In this document: piece after piece, positions 26,795 through 59,134 of the stretch | Layout: each line of letters opens with the position of its first letter | Position numbering within the stretch: the stretch's first letter is position 1 | NCBI RefSeq assembly: GCF_046105845.1 | Contig: NZ_CP151004.1 | DNA: 64,000 nucleotides | Strand: one strand, 5' to 3' | Origin: Escherichia coli | GTDB taxonomy: Bacteria; Pseudomonadota; Gammaproteobacteria; Enterobacterales; Enterobacteriaceae | Translations under genes and position numbers: made by a program | The notes under the pieces: model-generated | The model's input: only the letters and a program-made list of their open reading frames with translations | Database searches by the model: none | What the model was told of the DNA's origin: nothing

Positions 26795-27259
26795 ATGAAC
26801 TTTCATCAGTACTATCCTGTCGACATCGTCAACGGCCCCGGCACTCGCTGCACCCTGTTTGTCTCCGGGTGTGTTCATGAATGCCCCGGTTGCTATAACA
26901 AAAGCACATGGCGGGTAAATTCCGGTCAGCCATTTACCAAAGCAATGGAAGACCAGATCATTAACGATCTGAATGACACTCGCATCAAACGCCAGGGGAT
27001 TTCCCTCTCCGGCGGCGATCCGCTGCATCCGCAAAACGTGCCGGATATTCTGAAACTGGTACAACGCATCCGCGCCGAATGTCCGGGTAAAGACATTTGG
27101 GTGTGGACAGGCTATAAACTCGACGAACTCAACGCTGCGCAAATGCAGGTTGTTGATTTGATTAACGTACTGGTCGACGGCAAATTTGTGCAGGATTTAA
27201 AAGACCCTTCCCTGATCTGGCGCGGCAGCAGCAATCAGGTGGTGCATCATTTGCGATGA
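26795..27259 (+). CDS. nrdG: anaerobic RNR activating protein NrdG (radical SAM)
   Basis: 154-aa ORF with CxxxCxxC-type cluster (CVHECPGCYN). Confidence 0.95.
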   Translation: MNFHQYYPVDIVNGPGTRCTLFVSGCVHECPGCYNKSTWRVNSGQPFTKAMEDQIINDLNDTRIKRQGISLSGGDPLHPQNVPDILKLVQRIRAECPGKDIWVWTGYKLDELNAAQMQVVDLINVLVDGKFVQDLKDPSLIWRGSSNQVVHHLR

Positions 27260-27263
27260 TAAG

Positions 27264-27295
27264 TTCCCTGTTACCTGAGTGCAGGCAACAGGGAA
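27264..27295. terminator. bidirectional terminator hairpin between convergent nrdG and cybC
   Basis: ttccctgtt acctgagtgcaggc aacagggaa inverted repeat between the two stop codons. Confidence 0.6.
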
Positions 27296-37233: not shown

Positions 37234-37451
37234 CACACTTCAAAAAAGTAAATAAAACGTTAATCACAAGTTTGTAATCGCTTTCATCTCACTATGAAAA
37301 ATGCGGCTACGGTTATGGATTTTCCTGCTCTTTAAACCACCTTAAAACTGGCTAAAAAGGAAAATGAAGAAGAAAACAAGCGAAGACATTCGGCGCGAGT
37401 TGGCTATAATACTCGGCACTTGTTTGCCACATATTTTTAAAGGAAACAGAC

Positions 37452-37982
37452 ATGAGCTTACTCAACGTCCCTGCGGGTAAAGATCTGCCGGAAGACATCT
37501 ACGTTGTTATTGAGATCCCGGCTAACGCAGATCCGATCAAATACGAAATCGACAAAGAGAGCGGCGCACTGTTCGTTGACCGCTTCATGTCCACCGCGAT
37601 GTTCTATCCGTGCAACTACGGTTACATCAACCACACCCTGTCTCTGGACGGTGACCCGGTTGACGTACTGGTCCCGACTCCGTACCCGCTGCAGCCGGGT
37701 TCTGTGATCCGTTGCCGTCCGGTTGGCGTTCTGAAAATGACCGACGAAGCCGGTGAAGATGCGAAACTGGTTGCGGTTCCGCACAGCAAGCTGAGCAAAG
37801 AATACGATCACATTAAAGACGTTAACGATCTGCCTGAACTGCTGAAAGCACAGATCGCTCACTTCTTCGAGCACTACAAAGACCTCGAAAAAGGCAAGTG
37901 GGTGAAAGTTGAAGGCTGGGAAAACGCAGAAGCCGCTAAAGCTGAAATCGTTGCCTCCTTCGAGCGCGCAAAGAATAAATAA
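37452..37982 (+). CDS. ppa: inorganic pyrophosphatase Ppa
   Basis: 176-aa [41 protein letters not shown]... Confidence 0.97.
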
Positions 37983-38000
37983 GTTCTTCTAGCGCAATAA

Positions 38001-38036
38001 CCCTGAACGCCGGGCTTCGGTTAGTAAGGGTTTTTT
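38001..38036 (+). terminator. probable ppa terminator
   Basis: Imperfect GC-rich stem followed by T6 (ccctgaacgccgggcttcggttagtaagggtttttt). Confidence 0.5.
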
Positions 38037-38060
38037 ATGCCCGCGATAAATAAACACGCC

Positions 38061-38411
38061 TTATTCCACCACCGCCTGCAAACGTAATAACGCCTCTTCC
38101 ACCACTTCACCCGCAGCCAGACCAATACGCTTTGCCAGCCGGGCGCGTAGATCCATCATCCGCACCTGATTCACCAGCACCACGCCGTGCACATCGCCTT
38201 CTTCGCAATGTAAAGGAACGCTGAATCCTGCATAACGGGCAAAATTTCCGCCCTGCGTAATGGGGGCCACCAGCGTCATTCCCAGTTGATTAAAGGCTTG
38301 AACGGAGAGCACAAGCGCAGGTCGACCAGCACCTTGCTGTTCATGGCCGCTTGCTGGATCAAAGCCAACCAGCACAATGTCTCCCCGTTCAAATTCACTT
38401 TTCTTTACCAT
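38061..38411 (-). CDS. chpB: MazF-like endoribonuclease toxin ChpB
   Basis: 116-aa PemK/MazF-family ORF (MVKKSEFERGDIVLVGFDPASGHEQQGAGRPALVLS...). Confidence 0.9.
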   Translation of the reverse strand: MVKKSEFERGDIVLVGFDPASGHEQQGAGRPALVLSVQAFNQLGMTLVAPITQGGNFARYAGFSVPLHCEEGDVHGVVLVNQVRMMDLRARLAKRIGLAAGEVVEEALLRLQAVVE

Positions 38412-38656
38412 ATTTCGTCACCCGCAGGGGTGGATTTACCCCAGACATCCTGCTCGCTAAGTTCCGTGGCGTTCATGTCACACTGTGCCAGCAGTTCATC
38501 AAGCGAGTAGCGCCTGGAGATGGGTGTCAGAATCAGTTGATTGTTGCTCACTTGCGCCTCCACGCTCTGCCCCGGCCGTAAGTTAAGTTCTTTCATCACA
38601 ACATTAGGAATGACCATACCTGAACTATTCCCCCATCTTTTTATGGTAATACGCAT
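38405..38656 (-). CDS. chpS: antitoxin ChpS (AbrB/MazE-like)
   Basis: 83-aa ORF MRITIKRWGNSSGMVIPN... from ATG 38654-38656 with AAGGAGG RBS; stop overlaps chpB start. Confidence 0.9.
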   Translation of the reverse strand: MRITIKRWGNSSGMVIPNVVMKELNLRPGQSVEAQVSNNQLILTPISRRYSLDELLAQCDMNATELSEQDVWGKSTPAGDEIW

Positions 38657-38670
38657 CTGCACCTCCTTAA

Positions 38671-38687
38671 GTTATACAAAGTATAAC
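38671..38687. promoter_or_regulatory. palindromic candidate operator of the chpSB promoter
   Basis: GTTATACaaaGTATAAC perfect 7-bp inverted repeat 15 bp upstream of chpS. Confidence 0.5.
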
Positions 38688-38828
38688 TCACGGTGCTACA
38701 GGAAACGTTTTACCCCTGCGCATTTGTGAACGCCAGCAGAGTTTTTTATGCGTTAACAGATATGGAAAGCGGCTCGGAGAGAAAAGCAAAAGGTGAGGGA
38801 ATTACAAAACAGAATGCGAGTCGTCTCG

Positions 38829-38856
38829 CAAAAAACAACGCCACCCGAAGGTGGCG
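38829..38856 (-). terminator. rho-independent terminator of the tamA-tamB-ytfP operon
   Basis: Minus strand: cgccaccttcgggtggcg hairpin followed by TTGTTTTTTG, 6 bp past the ytfP stop. Confidence 0.7.
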
Positions 38857-38861
38857 TATGG

Positions 38862-39203
38862 TTACTTATCCCTGTCTAACCAGTCGCCGCTTTCAATTAG
38901 CTTTAATCCATCGACGGGTCGTTGATAAACGTACATCCATGCACTCCCGTACGGCGTCTGAATCAACTGGCGCGCGTATTCACCGCCCCTGGTGCGCAAG
39001 GCATCAAGTTCGGCCAGCGTGGCGTTGTCAATACGATAAACTTCACCGTGTACTGTTCCGTTCCCCGGAACTGCGCCTGGATAGTGGCCCAGGCTATACA
39101 ACTGGTAGTTATCGATACTGAAATCGCCCAGTAACTGGGCATTGGTCATCCAGTGACTGTTGCCTTGTTTGTGGCGTAAACTGCCGTAGACAAATATTCG
39201 CAT
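38862..39203 (-). CDS. ytfP: gamma-glutamylcyclotransferase-family protein YtfP
   Basis: 113-aa ORF MRIFVYGSLRHKQGNSHW... (GGCT/AIG2-like YGSL motif). Confidence 0.9.
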   Translation of the reverse strand: MRIFVYGSLRHKQGNSHWMTNAQLLGDFSIDNYQLYSLGHYPGAVPGNGTVHGEVYRIDNATLAELDALRTRGGEYARQLIQTPYGSAWMYVYQRPVDGLKLIESGDWLDRDK

Positions 39204-39205
39204 TG

Positions 39206-44757
<5,552 letters not shown>

Positions 44758-59088: not shown

Positions 59089-59100
59089 ATGTTGACATCC

Positions 59101-59122
59101 TCCACGCCCTGAAGGACGTGGA
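59101..59122. repeat. IS subterminal hairpin at the tnpB-proximal end
   Basis: tccacg-CCCTGAAGGA-cgtgga; partner hairpin ccccg-CCCTGAAGGA-cgggg at 60804-60823 with identical loop on the same strand. Confidence 0.6.
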
Positions 59123-59134
59123 TCCCTGCTACGT

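Follow-up and report, generated by a model that had tools for sequence, protein, structure and literature searches.

The chpSB toxin–antitoxin operon between ytfP and ppa in Escherichia coli and a conserved palindrome as its putative autoregulatory operator

Gene content and setting of the chpSB locus

We analyzed a toxin–antitoxin locus within a 64-kb (64,000-nucleotide) stretch of Escherichia coli DNA (contig NZ_CP151004.1), referred to here as the window. The segment of interest, 38061-38687, begins at the stop codon of chpB and ends at the outer edge of a palindrome upstream of chpS, and both genes lie on the minus strand. The genes and the features that frame them are:

38405-38656, minus strand: chpS, an 83-aa antitoxin whose N-terminal DNA-binding domain is of the AbrB/MazE type and whose C-terminal tail is acidic (open reading frame, Pfam, NCBIfam)
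38061-38411, minus strand: chpB, a 116-aa MazF/PemK-family endoribonuclease toxin (open reading frame, Pfam, NCBIfam)
38405-38411, minus strand: overlap of the chpS stop and chpB start, 7 nt, ATGGTAA (ATA TGG TAA in one frame, ATG GTA A in the other; read directly from the sequence)
38662-38668, minus strand: chpS Shine-Dalgarno sequence AAGGAGG, 5 nt upstream of the ATG at 38654-38656 (sequence)
38815-38857, minus strand: two tandem terminator-like hairpins downstream of ytfP, dividing tamAB-ytfP transcription from chpSB (terminator scan)
37996-38035, either strand: hairpin in the gap of 78 nt that separates the convergent stops of ppa (37982) and chpB (38061), with a T-run on the ppa side only (repeat search, sequence)
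38046-38705, either strand: segment specific to chpSB-bearing strains, in place of which ~43% of complete E. coli genomes have a decayed remnant of ~170 bp (alignments)

A sequence-only reading of the window had described an AbrB-like antitoxin followed by a MazF-family toxin of a known family. Consistent with this description, both proteins pass Pfam and NCBIfam equivalog cut-offs. ChpS matches the Pfam family MazE_antitoxin (PF04014; 1.5e-11, 44.5 bits against a cut-off of 24.7, residues 5-49) and the NCBIfam equivalog NF008463 over its whole length (192.8 bits, cut-off 101, residues 1-83 of 83). ChpB matches PemK_toxin (PF02452; 3.7e-25, 88.7 bits, cut-off 23.1) and the equivalog NF007320, again over its whole length (226.8 bits, cut-off 129, residues 1-116 of 116). 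Since the NCBIfam equivalogs for MazE and MazF score under their cut-offs (62.7 against 120 for MazF), we assign the toxin as ChpB rather than MazF. The two proteins are thus ChpS and ChpB equivalogs, encoded by the same genes as b4224 and b4225 of K-12 MG1655, and the module is an already known and ordinary one.

Among solved structures, the best match of ChpB is Kid (1m1f, 6.3e-21) and the best match of ChpS is MazE (1mvf/1ub4, ~7e-7), whose structures align to ChpS residues 4-83; a search of the PDB found no structure of ChpB, ChpS or their complex. ChpB R30 and T52 are invariant when ChpB homologues are aligned with Kid and E. coli MazF, and they align with MazF R29 and T52, which we take to form the MazF active site.

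The arrangement of the genes is that of a type II module, with small adjacent genes on one strand, the antitoxin first and a 7-nt overlap. The overlap of the chpS stop and chpB start had been noted from the sequence and is likewise annotated in RefSeq genomes, implying that translation of the two genes may be coupled. The program-made list of open reading frames starts chpS at a GTG (38662) that lies inside the Shine-Dalgarno sequence; the annotated 83-aa protein starts at the ATG at 38656, in agreement with RefSeq chpS in K-12 and other strains. The GGAGG of this Shine-Dalgarno sequence is kept in Enterobacter asburiae and in pemI.

The placement of the module between ppa and tamAB-ytfP was read correctly, as the order tamB-ytfP-chpS-chpB-ppa-ytfQ in the window matches MG1655. 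Using a 1-kb query and alignment over at least 80% of it, we found an intact ytfP–chpS–chpB–ppa arrangement in 3097 of 5425 complete E. coli genomes (57%), at 95-99% identity, with the genes named chpS and chpB in RefSeq and K-12 MG1655 among the carriers. The allele in the window is matched best by strain 2012C-4221 (98.8% over 1 kb). In ~2300 genomes the decayed remnant includes the last chpB codons and a 94-nt piece of chpB (38276-38370) at 74% identity, with the rest deleted up to 38705. A scan of one genome per species yielded at least four loci, including those of Escherichia whittamii and Enterobacter asburiae, both in the ytfP–ppa slot; among the matches listed, ChpB is 97% identical in E. 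whittamii and 78% identical in E. asburiae, where ChpS is 75% identical. Because the same slot is occupied in Enterobacter, and because E. coli genomes without the module retain a remnant of it, these comparisons show that chpSB has long resided at this site and did not insert there recently. As a clean natural case of toxin–antitoxin decay, the locus could help studies of how chromosomal modules are lost. E. coli records labelled as plasmids that carry chpSB proved to be chromosomal fragments, with tamB-ytfP and ppa-ytfQ on either side of the module.

Of the two hairpins downstream of ytfP, the one at 38838-38857 is conserved in Enterobacter. The hairpin in the convergent gap (37996-38035), at which the terminator scan made no terminator call, is probably a 3' end structure shared by ppa and chpB.

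The module had also been singled out as the only defence- or addiction-type module in the window besides tnpB. As a statement about addiction-type modules, this is consistent with the closest annotated genome, which is colinear with the window save for a few indels. That genome has an additional type II pair of the RelE/RelB family between nrdG and cybC, a site that is empty in the window (~27255-27295). The window for its part carries a 1.7-kb insertion (59091-60839) with genes for a 402-aa TnpB and for a truncated TnpA of the IS200 type. The term ‘defence’ gained no support: at E ≤ 0.001, neither ChpS nor ChpB is hit by a PADLOC model, and E. coli RNA phages show no depletion of the ChpB sites ACG and ACU (PMC12151602), so the label is unsupported for this locus, and ‘addiction-type’ is a family label only.

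The chpSB module, known since 1993, belongs to the standard E. coli K-12 set of toxin–antitoxin loci. It is among the canonical type II loci deleted in the K-12 Δ5 and Δ10 strains (PMC2814082). ChpBK cuts before or after the A of ACY/ACD, leaving a 2',3'-cyclic phosphate, and is a mild toxin that lowers protein synthesis only to ~60% of normal (PMC5408214; PMC5888573). It acts independently of the ribosome (PMC2814082) and is neutralised by the chpSB antitoxin (PMC5408214; PMC2814082). Toxicity, cleavage specificity and neutralisation are predicted for the present allele from this K-12 literature. We counted 14 ACD sites in chpS (5.6 per 100 nt) and 10 in chpB (2.9 per 100 nt) – denser in chpS, as published – though neither count departs from synonymous-codon shuffles.

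A palindrome upstream of chpS

The region immediately upstream of chpS contains nested symmetric elements and a putative promoter hexamer:

38670-38688, either strand: core palindrome AGTTATAC-AAA-GTATAACT, 19 bp with perfect 8-nt arms, the putative operator for ChpS or ChpS–ChpB (repeats, parD homology, conservation)
38671-38687, either strand: the same core with 7-nt arms, GTTATACaaaGTATAAC, 14 nt upstream of the chpS ATG
38657-38701, either strand: extended 45-bp quasi-palindrome with 21-nt arms (38657-38677 and 38681-38701) that are 76% complementary, taking in the Shine-Dalgarno sequence (inverted-repeat search)
38680-38685, minus strand: TATACT, putative −10 hexamer for chpSB, situated in the palindrome's upstream arm, with a predicted transcription start near 38672-38674

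The sequence-only reading had reported GTTATACaaaGTATAAC as a perfect palindrome 15 bp upstream of chpS. The palindrome is there and is perfect, at 38671-38687; its distance from the ATG is 14 nt rather than 15, and the perfect arms reach 8 nt rather than 7. A palindrome of 7-nt arms is by itself weak statistical evidence. Perfect inverted repeats of this arm length, with spacers of 0-6 nt, number 62 in the 64-kb window, and when the 205-nt ytfP–chpS intergenic region is shuffled, one turns up in 5.5% of the shuffles. Since such repeats are not rare, the case against chance depends on conservation and on homology to a characterized operator.

Conservation is pronounced at two depths of comparison. 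Of the 3097 E. coli genomes carrying the 61-nt segment 38650-38710, 2818 have it without a single difference, although identity over the 1-kb locus is typically 95-99%. Between Escherichia and the syntenic locus of E. asburiae, the palindrome is identical at 16 of 17 positions, whereas the intergenic region outside it reaches 47%; no other 17-nt stretch of that region scores as high. Both arms are unchanged in Enterobacter and the central spacer base alone differs (TTT to TAT); at a 47% background, the chance of all 14 arm positions remaining unchanged is ~3e-5. More distant homologues from Burkholderia (on plasmids), Massilia and Rheinheimera, with ChpB at 55-62% identity, have other short repeats and no GTTATA half-sites, as would be expected if operator and antitoxin co-evolve.

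The homology is to parD (kis-kid). Upstream of pemI/kis on an IncF plasmid we find GTTATATTTTTATTAAAC, 33 bp, GTTATATTTAAATATAAC, 17 nt and then the ATG, the two elements corresponding to parD regions II and I; upstream of chpS the arrangement is GTTATAC-TTT-GTATAAC, 14 nt before the ATG. Region I and the chpS palindrome have common outer half-sites (GTTATA…TATAAC), adjoin the Shine-Dalgarno sequence and overlap the −10, which is putative at chpS. In hydroxyl-radical footprints, Kis alone and the Kid–Kis complex protect regions I and II, and region I overlaps the (extended) −10 with its left half; Kid itself does not bind DNA and strengthens Kis binding (PMC1865072). Because of the homology to region I, the conservation in Enterobacter and the near-identity within E. 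coli, we predict that the palindrome is the binding site of ChpS and the operator of the operon, a reading that this comparative evidence makes likely. The earlier suggestion that the layout fits autoregulation by the antitoxin–toxin complex thus gains backing from the parD operator and the phylogenetic footprint, which point to the same site.

TATACT is the most likely −10 of the chpSB promoter. It matches TATAAT at five of six positions, has a G at −14 and takes up the position at which the −10 of parD overlaps the left half of region I, and TACAAT stands at the equivalent distance from the Shine-Dalgarno sequence in the Burkholderia and Massilia homologues. A sigma-70 consensus scan of 37900-38950 called no minus-strand promoter, as the −35 is poor, so the assignment of the −10 rests on homology. 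A search of Rfam found no match at E ≤ 1 in 37400-39300. As a terminator the palindrome is ruled out by its AT-rich stem and by the absence of a T-run after it. We also looked for a second operator resembling parD region II. The best candidate, GTTAACGCATAAAAAAC (~38743-38759), matches at 8 of 14 arm positions and lies 55 bp away; we rejected it, as it is variable within E. coli and not conserved in Enterobacter.

We propose the following mechanism, in which ChpS binding to the palindrome, the position of the −10 and the enhancement of repression by the toxin are extrapolated from parD (kis-kid) and mazEF. chpS and chpB would be co-transcribed on the minus strand from a weak promoter whose −10 (TATACT) lies in the upstream arm of the 19-bp palindrome, with chpB translation coupled to that of chpS through the 7-nt stop/start overlap. 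ChpB would act as a ribosome-independent MazF-family endoribonuclease, a comparatively mild toxin cutting single-stranded RNA at ACD (ACA/ACG/ACU), and would be neutralised by the acidic C-terminal tail of ChpS. ChpS would dimerise by means of its AbrB/MazE-type N-terminal domain and bind the palindrome, with tighter binding probable for a ChpS–ChpB complex, and the bound protein would occlude the −10, exclude RNA polymerase and repress the operon. Loss of the labile antitoxin would then de-repress the operon and free ChpB.

In the searchable literature we found no paper containing the phrases chpB, chpS, chpSB or chpBIK promoter, and no direct study of DNA binding by ChpS. The chpSB operator thus seems never to have been defined experimentally, and the comparison narrows it to a 19-bp site.

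Alternative explanations

The extended symmetry of the region raises the question of whether the palindrome acts mainly as RNA. Instead of or besides serving as a DNA operator, it could allow transcripts started further upstream to fold a 45-nt hairpin that buries the chpS Shine-Dalgarno sequence, and translation would then be limited to transcripts starting inside the palindrome. The predicted fold is stable (−22.9 kcal/mol, z −4.2), with none of 200 shuffles as stable, the AAGGAGG region is paired, and with G·U counted, 18 of the 21 arm positions form pairs. The left flank of the palindrome in E. asburiae, moreover, differs from ours yet again complements, in the same register, the Shine-Dalgarno sequence of that locus (GCCTC…GAGGC). 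Such complementarity could be coincidence, as only two lineages are compared, and the conservation of the AT-rich core arms is explained equally well by protein binding. The supply of upstream transcripts is a further difficulty: ytfP is separated from the palindrome by two terminator-like hairpins, and the consensus scan of 37900-38950 found no promoter-like site upstream. Transcription of parD starts inside or downstream of region I, and if the same holds here the hairpin would never be transcribed whole. We therefore regard a mainly RNA-level role as improbable. A dual function, in which the 19-bp core is the ChpS operator at the DNA level and the surrounding 45-bp quasi-palindrome sequesters the Shine-Dalgarno sequence on upstream transcripts, appears similarly improbable; if it were true, synthesis of ChpS and ChpB would depend strictly on the operon's own repressible promoter.

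The 45-bp quasi-palindrome has been made perfect in one O111:H2 strain by five clustered changes, and this single strain suggests that its symmetry may be a hotspot for template-switch mutation.

The symmetry could also have no regulatory role, being an AT-rich promoter or −10 that is symmetric by chance in an operon that is controlled elsewhere or not autoregulated. The frequency of comparable repeats (62 in the window, 5.5% of intergenic shuffles) would allow this, as would our finding no ChpS binding data in the searchable literature. A plain −10 would constrain one arm only, however, and both arms are exact in Enterobacter against flanks at 47% (~3e-5 for 14 positions), while parD has the same half-sites at the same position as a footprinted operator. 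We consider a palindrome without function very unlikely. Slightly less likely still is that the module in the present strain is a decaying or inactive copy, like those that occupy this site in many other E. coli. That ~43% of complete genomes keep only a degraded chpB remnant marks the locus as dispensable and prone to loss, and the toxicity of ChpB is reported to be weak (PMC5408214). Against decay here, the open reading frames are full length; the overlap, Shine-Dalgarno sequence and palindrome are intact; both proteins score far over their equivalog cut-offs; and the substitutions (two in ChpB relative to MG1655, four in ChpS relative to K-12-type ChpS) all avoid invariant columns.

Taken together, the family assignment, the identity with the MG1655 genes, the synteny, the conservation of the palindrome and its homology to parD support the chpSB operon with an operator at its promoter. 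We put the probability at roughly 85% that the locus is the intact chromosomal chpSB (chpBI/chpBK) type II operon of Escherichia in its ancestral ytfP–ppa slot, with the palindrome as its putative autoregulatory operator.

Comparison with characterized toxin–antitoxin systems

The closest characterized relative is chpSB of K-12 MG1655 (b4224/b4225), which has the same genes in the same order, the same 7-nt overlap and the same ytfP–ppa location. ChpB of MG1655 is 98% identical to that of the window, which differs by R90H and G103D, and K-12-type ChpS, taken from a K-12-like strain whose protein accession recurs in other E. coli, is 95% identical, with S12A, V19I, R27Q and T64A in the window. 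The palindrome, the Shine-Dalgarno sequence and 100 nt upstream are essentially identical in the two strains. Nearby, they differ by a 6-nt indel just after the ytfP stop codon, beside its terminator hairpin, and by 1 nt in the T-run that follows ppa.

The parD/pem systems of plasmids R1 and R100 (kis-kid, equivalent to pemI-pemK) are likewise antitoxin-first and encode homologous proteins, with PemK ~44-45% identical to ChpB and PemI 37% identical to ChpS. The resemblance of the operators is incomplete. Region I of parD is 18 bp with no spacer (GTTATATTT followed directly by AAATATAAC), whereas the chpS site is 17 bp with half-sites 1 bp closer, and parD has a region II 33 bp upstream of which we found no conserved counterpart at chpS. 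Because of these two differences, the stoichiometry model developed for parD may not transfer to chpSB. The toxins also diverge: at L79 and N81, the residues aligned with R73 and D75 of Kid, ChpB follows MazF rather than Kid. The systems differ in their setting as well, parD being plasmid-borne and stabilising plasmids while chpSB is chromosomal and syntenic across genera. Cross-talk between chpSB and plasmid-borne parD/pem through the shared GTTATA half-sites is a possibility.

The mazEF (chpA) operon of E. coli has its two Pfam families and its operon logic in common with chpSB. The toxins are only 34% identical, although MazF R29 and T52 align with ChpB R30 and T52, and MazF, which cuts at ACA, is more toxic than ChpB (PMC5408214). 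The regulatory regions differ in design: mazEF has two promoters and an ‘alternating palindrome’ as its operator (PMC3879964), whereas chpSB has a single short palindrome.

Presence and loss of chpSB in E. coli

The chpSB locus is polymorphic within the species: it is intact in 3097 of 5425 complete E. coli genomes. In the remaining genomes, the site equivalent to window 38046-38705 is occupied by ~170 bp of decayed chpB, which comprises the chpB 3' end and a 94-nt internal chpB piece (74% identity) – chpS having been lost. One example comes from E. coli W5-6 (comparison sequence L001):

L001 1640-1800, decayed chpB remnant, counterpart of window 38046-38705

The remnant, at the same site in genomes without intact chpSB, shows that the module is an old occupant that was later lost, rather than an insertion.

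E. coli records in the PLSDB plasmid collection that carry chpSB, including NZ_AP023207.1 (L013), also hold tamB-ytfP-chpS-chpB-ppa-ytfQ. What has been filed as plasmids is therefore chromosomal DNA, either a segment or an entire chromosome (e.g., NZ_CP134663.1, a 4.9 Mb record with a ChpB 100% identical to that of the window).

The chpS palindrome and its upstream flank

E. coli O111:H2 08-3342 (L014), the one genome of the 3097 that falls in the 90-95% identity band, differs at positions 410-455, the counterpart of the quasi-palindrome at window 38657-38701. Five clustered substitutions convert its left flank from CTGTAGCACCGTGA to CTGCACCTCCTTAA, which matches the right flank's reverse complement exactly, and the site is thus a perfect 45-bp palindrome. 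The pattern suggests a mutation by template switching (‘quasipalindrome correction’).

Allowing up to three mismatches, the chpS palindrome pattern has five matches in the window versus 1.35 expected. One site near the yjgM start, GTTAAACTATGAATAAC at 7580-7596, fits the pattern with two mismatches and is probably a chance match.

Upstream of the chpS promoter, window 38706-38800 (minus strand) – the old K-12 ‘yzfA’ area – shows 95% conservation even in E. coli lacking chpSB, and its blocks CGAGCC.CTTTCC and CTGCTGG..TTCACA are kept in Enterobacter too. This stretch had no Rfam match and a promoter scan of it gave no call.

Differences from strain 2012C-4221

In strain 2012C-4221, the closest annotated genome, nrdG and cybC flank a type II toxin–antitoxin pair of the RelE/RelB family; the corresponding window site (27255-27295) is empty. 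A segment just 90% identical to that strain contains a 608-aa ORF (9873-11699, minus strand) and ~155 extra nucleotides at 10946-11101; the corresponding hypothetical protein of 2012C-4221 has 555 aa, and PADLOC gave no match for the 608-aa ORF. Relative to the same strain, the window also carries a 1.7-kb insertion (59091-60839) with two genes:

59135-60343, minus strand, TnpB (402 aa)
60351-60638, plus strand, truncated IS200-type TnpA (95 aa)

In PADLOC the TnpB matched Cas12f/Cas12u models, as expected from homology.
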